From Myxococcota bacterium (GTDB taxonomy: Bacteria; Myxococcota_A; UBA9160; SZUA-336), in the NCBI GenBank assembly GCA_046757685.1, contig JBHHYV010000004.1, forward strand, positions 1,403 through 65,402: DNA of 64,000 nt, given 5' to 3'. Below are positions 1,218 through 57,120 of this stretch, one piece after another (position 1 is the stretch's first letter; each line of letters starts with the position of its first letter). The notes under the pieces are model-generated. The model had not been told where the DNA came from, did no database searches, and worked only from the letters and a program-made list of their open reading frames with translations. Made by a program: the position numbers and the translations under genes.

Positions 1218-3248
1218 CAGGATGTTCGCGTTGGCGCCCGGGTGGCGTTGCGCGACCTGCATGCCCGAGGTCCTCGCGTTGCCCCAGCCGTGGGTCATGG
1301 CGACGACACCGGGCCGGAGGCTCTCGTCGAGACGGATCTGGGTCTCGACCTCTCCATGGGCGCTCTTCACCGATACGCGTGCCGCATCCGCGAAGCCACG
1401 GCTGCGGGCATCCTCGGGATTCATGTGCAGCCAGTTGCGATCGTGCAGGCCACGCTTGAGTCGAGGCAGGTTCTGGTACCAGGTGTTGTGCATGTAGGGC
1501 GTCCGCAGGGTGATCAGCTTCAGCACCTCGGGGCCTTCGGCTCGTAGCTGCTCGAAGATCTCCTCGCAGCGCTCGAGGGCACCCGAGAAGCCCGGCGGGC
1601 AGCAATCCACCCGGCCGTCTTCGGTCTGGATCACCTCGTCGTAGAAGCGTCCCGGCTCGGAGCGGGGAAGAACCACGCCGCGCGCATCCCGCTTGAGATC
1701 CGCGAGCGAGAGCCGCGAGCGGGCGAGCATGTGCTCCATCCGCTGCCAGACCAGCGCCTCGGGGTCGGCAGCGTCGAGCGCGGAACGCTGGCCCATTGCC
1801 TGGGCCAGGCGCGCGAAGATCCACCACTCCTCCCGGCGCTCGTCGCGGGGCGGCACCACCGGCTCACCGAGCTGGACCCAGGGCCTGTGCTGGAGCCCCA
1901 GACCCGCGATGTTGAGGTCCGCACGCTCGAGCCAGTCGGTCGCGGGCAGGTTGAAGTGCGCGAGCTCGCCCGTGGCGGTCCGGTAGAGATCGATCGTGAC
2001 CAGGAGCTCGAGCTTCGAGAACGCGCGGCGCAGGGCGGGCTCGCCCGCCACCGAGAGCAGCGGATTGCCCGCCACCACGATCAGCGCCCGCAGGGGCTGC
2101 GGGTGCTCCTCGATGTACTGTGCGAGCAGGTTGGCGGGCAGCGTCCCGCGGCGGAGCGGCCCAAAGGGACTCTCCCGGAAGGCGTCGTCGGGACCCCCCC
2201 GGCCGGCGCGGCTGTTGGGGTAGAAGCCGTCCGACTTGAGATTGCCGCCGCGCCGATCGAGATTGCCGGTGACGAAGGAGAGCATGTGCAGGAGCCAGTA
2301 GGCGAGCGTGCCCTGGCGTCCCATGTTCACGCCCGTCGACATGTGCACGGCCGCGCGCTCCGCCCTTGCGAACTCGGCGGCCAGACCCCGGATCTCGGAG
2401 GCCGCGAGACCGACGACGGGGGCCACGCGATCGGCCGGGTAGCGACGCACGAAGCTGCGCAGCGCCTCGATGCGCGTGGCGTGCGCGGCCACGACCTCGG
2501 CGTCGAAGCCGACCGTCGCATCGATCTCGGCGAGCATGGCCGCGAGCAGGTACACGTCGGTGTCGGGCCGGATCTGCACCACGTCTCCGACCTCGGGACC
2601 CGCCGACTCGATCCGGCGCGGATTCACGAAGCGGATCGTGGCGCCGCGCCGACGCGCGTCCTTCAGCACGCGCATGGGGTCGGCGATCGCGAGAAAGCTC
2701 ATGTGGCTGACGCGCGGGTTCTCGCCGAAGATCAGCAGGTGGTCGCAGTGATCGAGGTCGGGAACCGGATGGATCGTGCTCGAGCCGAAGACCGCCTCGC
2801 TGCCCGCGAACTTGTTCGCACAGTCCTGCGTGCCCGAGCTGAATCCCCGCCTCACGCCGAGGGTTCTGAAGAAGCCGGAAGCAGCCGCACCGAGCAGCGC
2901 GTTGAAGGCGCTCGGGTTGCCAATGTAGGAGCCCACGGCCTCGGGTCCGTAGCGGGACAGGAGGCCCTTCAGGCGGCCGGCGATCTCGTCGACCGCCTCG
3001 TCCCACGAGAGCTTCTCGAAGCGCCCGTCTTCGCGACGCCTCTCGGGGTAGCCCAGGCGGTCGGGATCGCGATGGATGTCGATCGACGCGAGCCCCTTGT
3101 GGCACGCAAACCCGCGGGTGACCGGGTGCTCCCGGTCGGGACGAAGACCCTGGAGCTCGCCCTCCCCCACGGTGGCGACCAGCCCGCAGGCGGGCTCGCA
3201 GACCCTGCAGAAGGTAGGGACCTCGTGGCGCCCGCCGTCGCTCTCCAC
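1134..3248 (-). CDS. Molybdopterin (bis-MGD) oxidoreductase, cytoplasmic, uncharacterised clade
   Basis: N-terminal 4Fe-4S motif TFCRVCEPACG..GFACHKG, GENPRVSH, IRPDTD and C-terminal MGD-binding domain (HMNPEDA..PGVVAMTHGWG). GTG start at 3248 chosen, 20 nt after the thiolase stop. No Tat signal seen. Confidence 0.88.
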   Translation of the reverse strand: MESDGGRHEVPTFCRVCEPACGLVATVGEGELQGLRPDREHPVTRGFACHKGLASIDIHRDPDRLGYPERRREDGRFEKLSWDEAVDEIAGRLKGLLSRYGPEAVGSYIGNPSAFNALLGAAASGFFRTLGVRRGFSSGTQDCANKFAGSEAVFGSSTIHPVPDLDHCDHLLIFGENPRVSHMSFLAIADPMRVLKDARRRGATIRFVNPRRIESAGPEVGDVVQIRPDTDVYLLAAMLAEIDATVGFDAEVVAAHATRIEALRSFVRRYPADRVAPVVGLAASEIRGLAAEFARAERAAVHMSTGVNMGRQGTLAYWLLHMLSFVTGNLDRRGGNLKSDGFYPNSRAGRGGPDDAFRESPFGPLRRGTLPANLLAQYIEEHPQPLRALIVVAGNPLLSVAGEPALRRAFSKLELLVTIDLYRTATGELAHFNLPATDWLERADLNIAGLGLQHRPWVQLGEPVVPPRDERREEWWIFARLAQAMGQRSALDAADPEALVWQRMEHMLARSRLSLADLKRDARGVVLPRSEPGRFYDEVIQTEDGRVDCCPPGFSGALERCEEIFEQLRAEGPEVLKLITLRTPYMHNTWYQNLPRLKRGLHDRNWLHMNPEDARSRGFADAARVSVKSAHGEVETQIRLDESLRPGVVAMTHGWGNARTSGMQVAQRHPGANANILLPAGPGSFEPLSSQAHMTGIRVEVAPA

Positions 3249-19214: not shown

Positions 19215-19898
19215 TCAGGGCTGCAGCCGCTGTCGCGACCAGCGGCCTGCGCGAAATCCAGCGCCTTCCGCCTCGAGCGCTCGTGTCCACAAGGCCCGGT
19301 CGTGGAGTCGCCCGAAGCGGCCCACCCAGAGCTCGAGGCTCTCGATCCAGAGTCGGTAGCCACCCCAGTGTGGAGGGCGGGGGACCGGCGCGCCCGGGTC
19401 CCGGCCGCGGAACCTGGCCTCGGTCCGCGCGAGCTTCTCGAGCAACGCCGCACGAGAGGCGATGGGCCGACTCTGGTCACTGGCCCATGCAGAGAGAGCC
19501 GCCTCGGGTGGGCGAGACGAGAAGTAGGCATCGGACTCCGACTCCGGGGAGCGGACCACGGGCCCCTCGACCCGCACCTGACGCGCGAGCGCGTCCCAGT
19601 GGAAGACGGCTGCCGCTCGCCCGCTTCGCTCGAGGGCAGTCCCCTTGGGACTCCTGCGGTGGGTGTAGAAGACGAGCCAGCCCGACTCGAGGTCCCAGCC
19701 CCGACAGATCACGACGCGCGCCTCGGGCAGCCCGCTCGCTCCGACGGTGGCCAAGGTCATGGCGGTCGGGTTGCGGGCGACGCGCTCTGCGATCGCCTCG
19801 TCGAGCCAGCGCTGCAGCAGCGGGAGGGGAGCCTCGGGCAGGGGATCGTCGAGGGATCGGTCGGGCCGTTCTCGGCTCTCGGGCTCGAATCGCACCAT
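19215..19898 (-). CDS. pdxH: Pyridoxine/pyridoxamine 5'-phosphate oxidase
   Basis: PTAMTLATV, FYTHRRSPKG, RQVRVEG, YFSSRP, WASDQS, RPPHWGGY, ELWVGRFGRLHDR, RLQP. Confidence 0.93.
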   Translation of the reverse strand: MVRFEPESRERPDRSLDDPLPEAPLPLLQRWLDEAIAERVARNPTAMTLATVGASGLPEARVVICRGWDLESGWLVFYTHRRSPKGTALERSGRAAAVFHWDALARQVRVEGPVVRSPESESDAYFSSRPPEAALSAWASDQSRPIASRAALLEKLARTEARFRGRDPGAPVPRPPHWGGYRLWIESLELWVGRFGRLHDRALWTRALEAEGAGFRAGRWSRQRLQP

Positions 19899-19922
19899 CG
19901 TGGACGGGGGCCGCGCCGCGGC

Positions 19923-20999
19923 TCACCCCTGGAGCGGCGCTTCTCGTGTGGGCGTGATCGCCTCCATGGCGTAGACGGGAACGCCCTCGGCCGCCAGGGT
20001 GAAGAAGTCGGGGCCGAAGGGATCGCGGCCCCGGATCGGCATGGACCCCCGACGGATCGTCCAGTCCCGAGGCGCCAGCTCGTCGGCACGCTCGAAGTGA
20101 GGGCGGGCAGACTCTTCGAGGCCCCGCTGGTGCAGCTGCCAGGCCAGCATCCACTCCGCTCGCGCGTGCTCGGAGTCTGCGGTGGGGACGGGCATGTGGC
20201 GACGAACCTCGTCCTCGTCGAGCGCCCCCACGCCCTCCTTCACCCAGGCGCGGATCATGTTCAGGTAGGGCTCGGAGCGCTTGCCATGGAACGGCGTGAA
20301 GGTGTCGGTGCCGAACTGCGCGTCGTGCGGTCGACAGATCCGGCCACGCTCGTCGATCCACAGGAGGGTCGGAACGTTGGTGATGTGAAAGAGCGCAGCG
20401 ACCCGGTGGTGGGTGTCGACGACACTGGGATGCGTAGGCTGCGCGGCCTCGATGAAGGGTCGCGCGTCGTCCGCCGAGCGGTCGAGTGCAACGGCGAAAG
20501 GAACGAAGCCCTGCTCGCCCAGCTCCTCGTAGAGCGCCTGCCAGACCGGCAGGTCCTCACGGCAGCCTCACCAGGACGCGTAGACGATGAGCAGGACCTT
20601 GCGGCCCCGGTGCTCGGACAGCGTCTGCATGTGCCCCGACAGGTCGGGGAGACTGAAGTCTGGAGCGATGCCCGCCGCCAGACCCCGTGCGCGGTCGAGT
20701 GCCCGCGCCCCCAGCACGGCCATCCCTTCGGAGGCCTCGAGCGCCAGCGGCTGCCCGGCAAGCTCGGCCAGGACCTCCAGATCGACGCCTCGCGCCGTCA
20801 GGAGGCGGTCCGGGCTCGAGACCGGGATGCAGACGCGTCCGCGGCAAAGGCCCTCGGGCTTGAGCTCCCATCCCAGACCGTCGCGAACGCTCTCACGCGT
20901 GAGGACGACGCGACCTCCGTGGATCTCCCCCTCGAGAGCCCTGGGAGTGGCATCGTCGAAGACCGTGAACTCTCGCATCGCGGGCGCACTCGGACTCAT
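19923..20999 (-). CDS. Selenocysteine-containing redoxin (ResA/TlpA-like thioredoxin fold, ASW-U-GC motif), ~358 aa
   Basis: ORFs 20568..21122 and 19923..20258 share a frame, separated only by one TGA (20570-20568). Read-through gives APDFSLPDLSG..LSEHRGRKVLLIVYASW-U-GCREDLPVWQALYEE..FAVALD..TNVPTLLWIDERGRICRP. A SECIS-like hairpin follows the UGA. Confidence 0.9.
20532..20558 (-). promoter_or_regulatory. Bacterial SECIS element
   Basis: mRNA after UGA: GGCUGCCGU-GAG-GA-CCUGCC-GGUCU-GGCAGG-CG-CUC. Perfect 6-bp upper stem with a GGUCU apex, as in the E. coli fdhF SECIS, with the apical G's at +24/+25 counting the U of UGA as +1. Confidence 0.85.
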
Positions 21000-21256
21000 G
21001 GAGGGCTCCTCGATCCGTCCGTCGCCGATGCTAGCACGCGACCGGGGCTCTCCCGCGACGGCGCCCGGATGGAGGATCCCGTGCAGGGGAGCCTCCCGCG
21101 CGACAGAGCCCCAGAAGGACACAGGCTCCGATCGCCGGGACCTCAGAGCGGATCGAGTTCGGAGGCTCGCCGGGCCCTGGGCCCACCTCTCCCTGCCGGC
21201 GAGTCCCGGGCGCGGCTGGCCGCCGCCCCGGGATTTCCGCCGGAGGCTCGCCGGGG

Positions 21257-21601
21257 CTAGTCGTCGGACCCGCTGGACTTCGACGACTTGCTCGACTTCG
21301 ACGACTTGCTCGACTTCGATGACTTGCTCGACTTCGACGACTTGCTCGACTTCCCCGCTGCGGGGGATGCGGGCACCGCCGGCCCGCTCCCGAGCCCGTC
21401 TCCCGGAACCGAGGTCATCGCGCCTCCGCCCGAGCCCCCGCCGGAGGGCACCGGGACCGTCTGGCCCGTGATCTCGTTCGAGATCACGATCGGCTGTCGG
21501 CCGGTCATGTAGCCCTGTGCAGACGCCGTGGGCGCAGCAAGTAGCAGGCCCAGGCAGGCGAAAATACCGAGACTCAGGACACCGTATCGCATTCTCTTCA
21601 T
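21257..21601 (-). CDS. Small secreted protein with Gly-rich linker and (SSK)n tail
   Basis: RBS AAGGAG; Sec signal MKRMRYGVLSLGIFACLGLLLAAPTASA|Q; C-terminus GKSSKSSKSSKSSKSSKSSKSSKSSGSDD. Confidence 0.8.
   Translation of the reverse strand: MKRMRYGVLSLGIFACLGLLLAAPTASAQGYMTGRQPIVISNEITGQTVPVPSGGGSGGGAMTSVPGDGLGSGPAVPASPAAGKSSKSSKSSKSSKSSKSSKSSKSSKSSGSDD
21276..21352. repeat. Coding tandem repeat, 18-bp unit GACTTCGACGACTTGCTC x4.3 (9-bp sub-period)
   Basis: Read directly; one unit has CGAT instead of CGAC. Encodes Lys-Ser-Ser on the minus strand. Confidence 0.95.
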
Positions 21602-56490: not shown

Positions 56491-57120
56491 ATGCTCCACG
56501 CGGAAGTGAGCCATGGAGGGGATGCGAGATGGGCGACGCGGGGCTCACAGGCGCGTGCGAGAGCGAGCGTCCTGCGGATCCGGCGGGTCGCCGTCCTCTG
56601 GGTCCTGATCTCGGCGCTGGGAGCGGGGTGTGGGAGTCCGAGTGGGGCGTCGTCGGAGGGGGCGGATCGCGGACCCTACGTTCCCGGACTGGGTGAGATC
56701 ATGTCGGCGACGCAGATGCGCCACCTCAAGCTCTGGTACGCGGGACGAGCTCGCAACTGGGCACTTGCGAGCTACGAGGTCGACGAGCTCGAGGAGGGCT
56801 TCGAAGCGGCCATGCGCTTTCATCCCGAGCACAAGAACTCTCCGCGGCCGCTCACCGAGCTGATCCCGGAGTTCACCCGCGGCCCGACCGAGGCGCTACG
56901 CGCCGCCCTGCGCCGCGAGAGCCCCGATGCCTTCGTCGCCGCCTACGAGCAGCGGACCGAGGCATGCAACGGCTGTCACATCGCTACCCGCTTTGCCTTC
57001 AACCGCGTCGTGCGTCCGTCGGAGAATCCCTACTCGAACCAGCGCTTCGATGCTCGACGCGATTCTCCGGGGGGATCTCGCTCCGAGGCCCAGAGAGGCG
57101 AGAGCCGTGCGACCCGCTGA
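56491..57120 (+). CDS. Putative monoheme c-type cytochrome lipoprotein (helical bundle, C-terminal CxxCH); start uncertain
   Basis: Hydrophobic signal with lipobox LGAGC; PGLGEIM..QMRHLKLWYAG..NWALASYEVDEL; CNGCH. Confidence 0.7.
   Translation: MLHAEVSHGGDARWATRGSQARARASVLRIRRVAVLWVLISALGAGCGSPSGASSEGADRGPYVPGLGEIMSATQMRHLKLWYAGRARNWALASYEVDELEEGFEAAMRFHPEHKNSPRPLTELIPEFTRGPTEALRAALRRESPDAFVAAYEQRTEACNGCHIATRFAFNRVVRPSENPYSNQRFDARRDSPGGSRSEAQRGESRATR

Follow-up and report, generated by a model that had tools for sequence, protein, structure and literature searches.

The window, the whole 64,000-nucleotide stretch of DNA that was analysed, carries on its minus strand a gene for a three-domain thioredoxin-fold protein whose reading frame is open except for a single in-frame TGA (Table 1). 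Upstream of the ATG at 20999 is GAGGAG, at a spacing of 6 nt; the alignment of homologues starts at residues 1-11, and the terminal stop codon is also TGA (19925..19923). The read-through product is 358 aa long and reads ...LLIVYASW-U-GCREDLPVWQ... around the internal TGA. A preliminary description of this DNA had proposed that two separate open reading frames are pieces of one frame, with a lone TGA at the position of a catalytic Cys (YASW-TGA-GC-R), and that the active site is of the UxC and not the UxxC type. The frame reads exactly so, and the motif is U144-G-C146.

Table 1. Features of the selenoprotein locus, in window coordinates
Feature	Position	Strand	Remarks
Complete selenoprotein gene	19923..20999	-	358 codons plus terminal TGA stop
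N-terminal domain, residues 8-105, mixed beta/alpha	20685..20978	-	C52-x4-C57 on a beta hairpin
ResA/TlpA/DsbE-type thioredoxin-fold domain, residues ~106-260	20220..20684	-	U144-G-C146; cis-Pro loop N208-V-P-T211
In-frame TGA, selenocysteine U144 in W-U-G-C-R	20568..20570	-	TGA/Cys column in relatives
Lower GAG/CUC extension of the hairpin	20532..20558	-	Predicted fold of the window; not conserved in relatives
Predicted SECIS upper hairpin, 6-bp stem CCUGCC/GGCAGG around GGUCU	20537..20553	-	Conservation; loop covariation
C-terminal helical domain, residues ~261-358	19926..20219	-	Conserved DWTIRR; weakly TPR-like

The in-frame TGA and the Sec/Cys column

The preliminary description expected homologues to carry Cys or Sec at the U144 column, and no other residue was found there. 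Cys is present in all 52 full-length database homologues, which bear the NCBI product name 'TlpA disulfide reductase family protein'. TGA is present in all 80 related loci of species genomes and in 75 of the 79 metagenome loci, the other four having Cys; genomes and metagenomes together give TGA at 155 of 159 independent loci. A search of 401 genomes of the same phylum returned 50 matches, every one with TGA, spread over 32 genomes, and among 301 genomes of a second phylum, matches were confined to four, with one Cys form only. Judging by record titles, the carriers include Myxococcota-like, Binatia, Methylomirabilota/Rokubacteria, Chloroflexota and actinobacterial MAGs, and the family is common there. 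The great excess of Sec over Cys forms among the DNA loci sampled would make the family unusual.

Translation with table 11 yields two ORFs (20568..21122 and 19923..20258), as would a TGA that is a true stop in a split or dead gene, or one that arose by assembly error; alternatively, the codon could be read as another amino acid. Such explanations are very improbable given the recurrence of TGA at the same column in so many independent loci. The frame and the coding G+C pattern run on at both sides of the TGA, and fused Cys forms exist. Sequencing error, with TGC or TGG misread as TGA, had been named beforehand as a possible objection; contigs from a second sample contain the identical TGA-bearing sequence with zero differences. 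The genome also has the full Sec machinery, which the preliminary description had predicted as selABCD: selA (profile score 516 bits), selB (291 bits), selD (322 bits, with an in-frame TGA of its own) and tRNA-Sec (76.5 bits, anticodon tca). The selB frame leaves the contig end at 539 aa, so that the SECIS-binding C-terminus of SelB is absent from the assembly. Because the terminator of the gene is itself TGA, and no internal stop interrupts selA or selB, the genetic code is unchanged, which argues against decoding as another amino acid.

The gene is a genuine selenoprotein gene that is halved at the Sec codon by ordinary gene callers. All 68 short (~200-aa) database matches start immediately past the UGC motif, which fits genes truncated at the TGA. 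The locus is thereby a clean, well-supported example for selenoproteome annotation. A scan of the whole window for further in-frame TGAs flanked on either side by a coding signature recovered only the terminal stop and one weak candidate (57118-57120).

The hairpin behind the UGA

Directly 3' of the UGA, the transcript is predicted to form a hairpin of CCUGCC (20553-20548), GGUCU (20547-20543) and GGCAGG (20542-20537), below which GAG pairs with CUC (20558-20556 with 20534-20532). This is the structure drawn in the preliminary description, and both the upper stem and the lower pairing are found in the MFE and centroid folds. In an RNAalifold analysis of 142 distinct sequences, the upper hairpin was the sole consensus structure and the lower stem was dropped. 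Stem cells are paired in 98.6% of cases across these sequences, compared to 25-58% with slid partners. The hairpin is not unusually stable for such G+C-rich sequence (z -0.28; 76 of 200 shuffles fold equally well or better), and its significance derives from conservation and covariation, not from stability. A search of positions 19800-21200 against Rfam at a permissive threshold returned no SECIS and no other credible family.

Covariation in the stem proper is thin, with 6 of 852 stem cells doubly changed. Among the codons for the stem Leu, CTG occurs in 135 sequences, TTG in 12 and CTC in none, the four-fold-degenerate site being fixed to G; five other Leu columns are mixed. Gln is encoded by CAA in four cases, all of which adjoin a Leu TTG (4 of the 12 TTG rows). 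In the loop, the synonymous positions +24 and +27 covary (G:C in 78, C:G in 61, other combinations in 3) around an invariant G that is followed by U or G. This G, at loop position 2, is present in 156 of 156 copies, and approximately 43% of relatives have CGUGU in place of GGUCU. The tree requires at least 16 switches of the 24:27 state; both positions changed together in all seven independent supported pairs. The five Cys-form loci with DNA, four from metagenomes and one from the second phylum, retain the stem and differ only in the loop, a sample too small for a firm claim of loop loss. Since the stem is present in Cys forms, it is not diagnostic by itself.

The resemblance to E. coli fdhF that the preliminary description had noted was confirmed on the K-12 record, in which 18 nt separate the TGA from GGTCT; the corresponding distance is 20 nt here. 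Both elements are in-frame hairpins close behind the UGA with the same GGUCU string, and both would expose an apical-loop G-U approximately 20 nt past the UGA. Roles have been described for U17, G23 and U24 of the SECIS, the G and U being conserved SelB contacts, as far as the available text of that study goes (PMC8659212). Numbered from the U of UGA, the G-U dinucleotide lies at +25/+26 here but at +23/+24 in fdhF, a shift of 2 nt away from the UGA. The 5' bulged U (U17) of the fdhF upper stem is not evident here, as the 6-bp stem is continuous in the consensus structure, and by our own reading the U after GGUC is unpaired here, whereas it pairs with A21 in fdhF. Comparison of the sequences supports a putative SECIS that is fdhF-like and conserved in relatives. 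For this family the element provides a SECIS description of its own, including covariation at synonymous positions, and it may reveal a general rule in which a covarying cross-loop pair extrudes a G-U dinucleotide for SelB. The selenocysteine reading of the TGA agrees with the residues at the column, with the Sec machinery, with the second sample and with the conservation of the SECIS.

Domain architecture and known relatives

The three-domain layout suggested earlier was borne out by the alignment and the predicted structure (AF2 model, pLDDT 94.6). The N-terminal domain contains the string GWELKPEGLCRGRVCIP, which holds the second Cys pair that had been noticed at the outset; C52 (codon 20846-20844) and C57 (codon 20831-20829) are invariant in 50 aligned sequences. 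The Cys hairpin is missing from about 16 of 148 Sec-form copies, and thus the pair cannot be essential for catalysis. Foldseek found no match for this domain in the PDB at E<=0.001, and the best VIA match (5h3k; Z 6.2, rmsd 4.1, 90 aligned) is below a trustworthy level; a new fold is not claimed. In the ESM Atlas, residues 1-105 correspond just to unnamed clusters of ~85-101 aa. The C-terminal part is helical in the model, as had been anticipated, and the DWTIRR motif has the invariant residues D312, T314, R316 and R317, but the TPR character ascribed to it is weak (Pfam TPR_14, E 0.095, 13.9 bits against a cut-off of 23.5). The Kyte-Doolittle hydropathy (19-residue mean) has a maximum of 0.95, and is -0.12 in the first 40 residues. 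This low maximum indicates that there is no visible membrane anchor, and the scan of the whole protein found no signal peptide or membrane segment.

The central domain matches ResA (2f9s) in Foldseek with an E of 1.3e-11, and ResA, DsbE, TlpA and CcmG are the top structural matches in VIA (Z 12.7-15.4), including 3gl3 at Z 15.4 and ResA at Z 15.0. The alignment with 3gl3 places 'aswcg.cre' opposite 'ASWCGpCRQ', leaving one residue as a gap, and the protein retains the cis-Pro loop. The active site is a WCxxC motif minus one residue, giving W-U-G-C in a ResA/TlpA-type fold. The best Pfam match is AhpC-TSA (52.9 bits, cut-off 26), followed by Redoxin (37.7 bits) and a weak match to GSHPx (E 7e-4), and because AhpC/TSA ranks first, a function as a peroxiredoxin-like peroxidase has to be considered. 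Peroxide would oxidise U144 to a selenenic acid, C146 would resolve it and the N-terminal Cys pair would recycle the enzyme. Bcp/Prx structures do match in VIA (Z 11-12), but every Prx is outranked by ResA, DsbE and TlpA in sequence, Foldseek and VIA alike. Peroxiredoxins have the signature PxxxTxxC, and their conserved Arg occupies a position equivalent to that of the cis-Pro. The signature is not present here, with L137 and A141 at the respective positions (L137-I-V-Y-A-S-W before U144), and the loop is a ResA/TlpA-like NVPT where Prx has the conserved Arg. A peroxidase is therefore an unlikely identity for the protein, even though the first name given to its family in the literature points that way.

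That family is not unreported: UGC-containing TlpA/Prx-like selenoproteins are listed in two selenoproteome papers (GOS 2008; 2026 review; PMC2398784), initially under the name 'Prx-like (UGC-containing)'. The gene described here appears to be a member of this family, already predicted from metagenomes. According to the available portions of those papers, the published proteins share the thioredoxin/AhpC-TSA fold (pfam00578, cd02966), a UGC motif with a lone Sec, and Cys-containing homologues and, as here, they are computational predictions to which those portions assign no function. The gene has the corresponding features, namely a pfam00578/TlpA-like fold, a TGA-encoded U-G-C with Cys homologues, and a 3' SECIS together with Sec machinery. 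Motif and fold, together with the name that NCBI gives to the Cys homologues, as opposed to the sequences of the published members, suggest that the three-domain architecture is the same, as far as those portions describe the family.

A label mentioned in the preliminary description, 'ResA-like WAxxUGC', exists as NCBIfam NF041054 (WAxxUGC_long, equivalog), while a full-text literature search for 'WAxxUGC' returned nothing. The N-terminal CxxxxC and UGC redoxin domains match profile positions 10-202 of 354 (E 1.5e-70), and true members of NF041054 co-occur with this gene in related genomes, with one TGA each. However, the gene scores 238.3 bits, below the 300-bit cut-off, whereas 448-548 bits are reached by true members, whose matches span positions 1-353. 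In this gene, the C-terminal half of the profile is unmatched, in agreement with six-frame scoring, and none of 12 relatives scored against the profile reached 300 bits. The motif also departs from W-A-x-x-U-G-C, being Y-A-S-W-U-G-C here, and Y is the first motif residue in the majority (63%) of 148 clade sequences. The gene belongs to a sister clade with a different C-terminal domain and not to NF041054 itself. No NCBIfam equivalog model reaches its threshold on this clade; the ResA model gives 61.9 bits against a cut-off of 170.

The likeness to ResA, TlpA and CcmG (DsbE) extends beyond the fold to the (W/Y)A(S/T)W-Cys context, a basic residue past the second Cys and the cis-Pro loop. Those proteins are membrane-anchored and act outside the cytoplasm. 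The protein described here has no hydrophobic segment, has two extra domains and has U-G-C instead of CxxC (one residue shorter than the CGPC of 3gl3). It would represent a TlpA/ResA-type fold that has become a U-x-C enzyme of the cytoplasm and carries two further domains.

Proposed chemistry

What is directly seen comprises the recoding signals and the Sec machinery, the Sec/Cys column, and the fold with its motif geometry. Together these are best explained by a cytoplasmic thioredoxin-fold enzyme that carries Sec in a U-G-C motif and performs disulfide exchange, a reading with a probability of roughly 0.85. We infer both the actual incorporation of selenium and the direction of redox chemistry in the protein. 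During translation, the in-frame hairpin (20553..20537) would recruit SelB carrying Sec-tRNA(Sec) to UGA-144, where selenocysteine would be inserted instead of termination. U144 would then replace the nucleophilic first Cys of WCxxC at the start of helix 1, and C146 would serve as the resolving partner, one residue nearer than in CxxC. With such a nucleophile and a nearer partner, the most likely cycle alternates a selenolate/thiol form with a strained selenenylsulfide across U-G-C, as the enzyme exchanges with a partner's disulfides or mixed disulfides. An accessory role in relay or docking is probable for the N-terminal CxxxxC hairpin, as is binding of a partner for the helical tail. The 'three-domain selenium-dependent thiol oxidoreductase' of the preliminary description remains a putative function.

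Instead, the selenol and thiol could bind a soft metal or metalloid (Cu, Hg, As or Se), either by themselves or jointly with the N-terminal CxxxxC, making the protein a chaperone or detoxifier and not a redox catalyst. Four invariant chalcogen ligands in two short motifs are consistent with this role, as are the SCO1/SenC copper chaperones that share the fold (4hde, Z 10.1) and the action of TlpA on Sco and CoxB (structure titles 4txo and 4txv). It is nonetheless quite unlikely, as the WAxWC-type context and cis-Pro loop are features of exchange catalysts and the N-terminal Cys pair is dispensed with in some Sec forms. Furthermore, no conserved adjoining metal-handling genes were found among 81 loci. 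Neighbours were clustered at these loci after filtering by codon-position G+C; the unfiltered version consisted mostly of low-complexity wrong-frame ORFs and was discarded. The commonest neighbours encode an SDR (18 of 81 loci) and a P450 (15 of 81), neither of which occurs in the window. With no neighbour in more than 18 of the 81 loci and none common to the window, the neighbourhood gave no functional hint.

For the disulfide-exchange enzyme, a more speculative extension, to which only a low likelihood can be attached, is that the clade constitutes a distinct cytoplasmic selenium-dependent 'redoxin' that combines a strained U-G-C selenenylsulfide with the N-terminal CxxxxC domain, which on this reading would have an undescribed fold, as an internal relay, the SECIS cross-loop rule included. 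Such an enzyme may reduce mixed disulfides of low-molecular-weight thiols, for example, or isomerise disulfides under oxidative stress. The bacilliredoxins BrxA/BrxB (YphP/YqiW), which have a cytoplasmic thioredoxin fold and a CGC site (PMC8113031), and an engineered thioredoxin with CGC offer parallels in mechanism only: the available text describes a C-G-C type site in a cytoplasmic thioredoxin fold, but with Cys where Sec is found here, and no such family is among the Pfam/NCBIfam matches of this protein. In the portions of the two sources available, CxC disulfides have potentials of -130 to -200 mV, which is comparatively oxidising (PMC3173608, PMC8113031), with -167 mV for a CGC peptide and -200 mV for the thioredoxin CGC mutant (PMC3173608).

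A selenocysteine codon at the catalytic column

The preliminary description took the gene to be one frame split by a single TGA at the catalytic Cys column of a redoxin, and the frame, together with the TGA and Cys counts in relatives, bears this out. Translation with table 11 lists the gene as two ORFs; the read-through product has 358 residues (...LLIVYASW-U-GCREDLPVWQALYEEL...). The start codon at 20999 is preceded by GAGGAG with a 6-nt spacer, and no GAGGAG-type site lies upstream of the internal ATG at 20978.

Features of the window
Feature	Position	Strand	Remark
Predicted selenoprotein gene	ATG 20999 to TGA stop 19925..19923	-	sole interruption of frame is TGA 20570..20568
SECIS hairpin CCUGCC-GGUCU-GGCAGG	20553..20537	-	20 nt between TGA and GGUCU
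Pyridoxamine 5'-phosphate oxidase-like gene	19215-19898	-	next gene downstream; start 24 nt past selenoprotein stop, same frame
Small ORF	21257-21601	-	hydrophobic signal-like N-terminus; C-terminal run of (SSK) repeats
Other in-frame TGA	57118-57120	+	context RGESRATR*TDAHPPAR; coding-like G+C on both sides; weak signal

Homologues carry Cys or Sec at this column, a check that the preliminary description had proposed. Of 8000 candidates scored against the read-through product, 560 reached E<=0.001, and 120 of these were listed. Among the matches listed, 52 are full length (339-367 aa), all with SW-C-GCR at the column, and 68 are short (196-214 aa), all starting a few residues past the UGC motif, the product expected of gene callers that stop at an in-frame TGA. 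The short proteins are 62-71% identical to the window protein, compared with 41-60% for the full-length ones. Contigs representing one genome per species contain 190 stretches encoding a relative, and TGA fills the column in all of the best 80 of these 190. In metagenomes, a scan that started from the nearest Cys-form protein found 79 loci, 75 with TGA, one of which holds two copies, and 4 with TGC or TGT. On one metagenome contig (L130:271-579) the WASW-TGA-GCRED segment occurs twice, 255 nt apart, which reflects a partial duplication in tandem or an error of assembly. Within the phylum, 32 of 401 genomes have a match at E<=1e-30, with one TGA in each of the 50 matches.

The base call itself recurs in a second sample from the same study, whose contigs cover 19923-20760 with zero differences, TGA included. 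Short contigs of other community organisms pile up on the TGA/SECIS segment (20535-20570), where summed depth reaches 8.5 and 38.3 in sequencing runs X3 and X4, versus 0-5 in the majority of other bins; nucleotide conservation across community members peaks in this segment. An altered genetic code is rejected, because the gene itself ends in TGA and neither selA nor selB has internal stops.

The genome, 92% complete, was predicted to encode selA, selB, selD and tRNA-Sec, and all were found, with scores of 516, 291 and 322 bits for the three proteins and 76.5 bits for the tRNA, which ARAGORN calls SeC with anticodon tca. The selB frame leaves the end of its contig (C51) after 539 aa, so that the C-terminal SECIS-binding part lies outside the assembly. 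The gene immediately upstream of it is seryl-tRNA synthetase-like (L001:3-1619 and 1616-2890, minus strand). One in-frame TGA in selD (...AKGGG-U-AAKL...) indicates that SelD is itself a selenoprotein here. Matches to selD occur at C57:1165-2097 and C33:6747-7667 (L010, L011); the second selD-like match has no stop and lies in a 643-aa open frame that may be a fusion. The TGA finding is real and its preliminary interpretation essentially right: Sec would be inserted at UGA-144 by way of the in-frame hairpin and the Sec machinery.

The SECIS hairpin

The hairpin previously noted directly 3' of the TGA and its lower GAG/CUC extension are both present in the MFE fold and in the centroid fold. Its stability is ordinary for the G+C-rich context (z -0.28; 76 of 200 shuffled sequences match or exceed it), and the case for it must therefore rest on comparison with relatives. 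In an alignment of 142 distinct sequences, 54 nt from the TGA onward, the only consensus structure found by RNAalifold is a stem of 6 bp that pairs columns 18-23 with columns 29-34. Standard pairs fill 98.6% of 852 stem cells, versus 25-58% with partners slid 1-3 columns. Stem covariation is thin, with double changes at two pairs (6 such cells), including CUUGCC/GGCAAG in 4 sequences. Synonymous sites are more telling. Of 147 sequences, 135 use CTG and 12 use TTG for the Leu within the stem, and none uses CTC, whereas CTC, CTG and CTT are mixed at five further well-conserved Leu columns of these sequences (87/38/18 at one, 73/64/4 at another). For Gln, 144 sequences have CAG and 4 have CAA, and those 4 are all TTG-bearing.

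The loop reads GGUCU in 80 of 156 copies, CGUGU in 67, CGGGU in 5, GGUGU in 2, and AGUCU and AGGCU in 1 each; G is invariant at position 2 and U at position 5, while position 3 holds U or G. Positions 1 and 4, the third bases of Pro and Val codons, covary (G:C 78, C:G 61, other 3 in the 142 sequences). A maximum-likelihood tree of 137 proteins requires 16 or more switches of this state, and all 7 of the 7 pairs that are phylogenetically independent and supported show a joint change at the two positions (sign test p about 0.016). From these substitutions, positions 1 and 4 are read as a putative cross-loop pair that would leave a G-U dinucleotide exposed. The Cys-form loci (n=5) keep the stem and have GGCGU, GGCCU or CGCCU loops, with Val changed to Ala; this would fit loss of SelB contact, though five sequences are a slender sample.

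The E. coli K-12 record (fdhF TGA, 18 nt, then GGTCTGCACC) confirms that fdhF shares the GGUCU apex, as the preliminary description had stated. The G-U is at +23/+24 in fdhF but at +25/+26 in the window gene. A review gives U17, G23 and U24 as conserved SECIS positions, with SelB contacting U17 and G23 (PMC8659212); the bulged 5' U of the fdhF type is not evident in the window hairpin. Rfam has no family matching the hairpin, and its covariation-supported description is new here.

Family membership and paralogues

Matched by description, the gene is a new member of a previously predicted selenoprotein family. The GOS selenoproteome lists 'Prx-like (UGC-containing)', pfam00578, motif UGC, with 46 Sec sequences from 15 samples and 855 Cys homologues (PMC2398784, Table 2). 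A review (PMC13188914) also treats the UGC-containing family; neither source assigns it a function, and the string 'UGC' is absent from the main text in Peng et al.

The 'ResA-like WAxxUGC' label mentioned earlier exists as NCBIfam model NF041054, but the window protein scores 238.3 bits, below the cut-off of 300, over profile positions 10-202 of 354. Eleven relatives and paralogues score 222-290 bits. Among 101 same-class genomes, 16 have an over-cut-off match, and these true members score 448-548 bits across the whole profile; orthologues of the window gene match just the first 200 positions, at about 190-220 bits. Many of these genomes carry both. The partial, sub-cut-off match and this co-occurrence indicate that the window gene belongs to a sister clade, which no existing equivalog model covers. 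The two clades share the first two domains, but that of the window gene has another C-terminal domain and usually Y for the motif's first W. A second paralogue in the same genome (C201; L183:113-1222, plus strand) shares 43% identity; its motif reads T-W-A-S-W-U-G-C and its hairpin is of the CGUGU form. At 290.2 bits it falls just below the NF041054 cut-off, and it is followed by a metallo-beta-lactamase-fold gene.

Fold, candidate function and neighbouring genes

A single AlphaFold2 model, run on a 50-sequence alignment, is confident (pLDDT 94.6, pTM 0.92) and predicts the three-domain layout suggested earlier. The C-terminal part, proposed to be TPR-like, is indeed helical, with an invariant D-W-T-I-R-R stretch; TPR_14 matches it below threshold (residues 282-317). 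The N-terminal domain, folded alone (residues 8-105, pLDDT 92.7), carries an invariant C52-x4-C57 on a beta hairpin and matches no solved structure with confidence (best Z 6.2; no Foldseek match at E<=0.001). The three-domain model, with an N-terminal domain predicted to have no recognised fold, is new here. In about 16 of 148 Sec-form copies this domain is shortened and lacks the Cys pair, indicating that C52/C57 are accessory, not catalytic. Shortened Sec forms without the GWxLKPEGLCxxxxC hairpin (L099, L103, L133-L146 and L157, from metagenomes and genomes) may constitute a 'short' form of the family.

The redoxin domain (residues ~103-260) matches AhpC-TSA (52.9 bits) and Redoxin (37.7 bits) in Pfam at residues 112-222, and ResA, DsbE-like, TlpA and CcmG structures (Foldseek: 2f9s, E 1.3e-11; VIA: 3gl3, Z 15.4, rmsd 2.4, 139 aligned; 2f9s, Z 15.0; 1jfu and 1kng, Z 12.7). 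HMMER aligns 'aswcg.cre' with 'ASWCGpCRQ', which leaves a gap of one residue within CxxC, and places NVPT opposite the cis-Pro loop. The active site is thus a ResA/TlpA site in which Sec stands for the first Cys and the spacer is one residue shorter, a reading of the alignment that is new here. In contrast to ResA, TlpA and CcmG, the protein is predicted to be cytoplasmic, since it lacks a hydrophobic segment (maximum 19-residue hydropathy 0.95; -0.12 within the first 40 residues).

The attacking nucleophile would be U144, located where helix 1 begins, and C146 would resolve it to a U-G-C selenenylsulfide. CxC disulfides are reportedly rather oxidising (CGC peptide -167 mV, thioredoxin CGC mutant -200 mV, YphP -130 mV; PMC3173608), and BrxA and BrxB are cytoplasmic Trx-fold bacilliredoxins whose CGC site strips bacillithiol off proteins (PMC8113031). 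By analogy, a fast-exchanging thiol/selenol-disulfide oxidoreductase that works as a redoxin or isomerase is favoured. The protein lacks the Prx signature and has a Trx/TlpA-type cis-Pro loop, which makes a peroxidase role less likely. Metal binding is another low-probability candidate role.

Gene context does not help with function. The commonest neighbours at 81 loci of the family, SDR (18/81) and cytochrome P450 (15/81), are both absent from the window. The small ORF at 21257-21601 has no match in Pfam. A scan of the window found only one other in-frame TGA with coding-like G+C on both sides, at 57118-57120, which is probably in the wrong frame. The pyridoxamine 5'-phosphate oxidase-like gene is probably co-transcribed with the selenoprotein gene.
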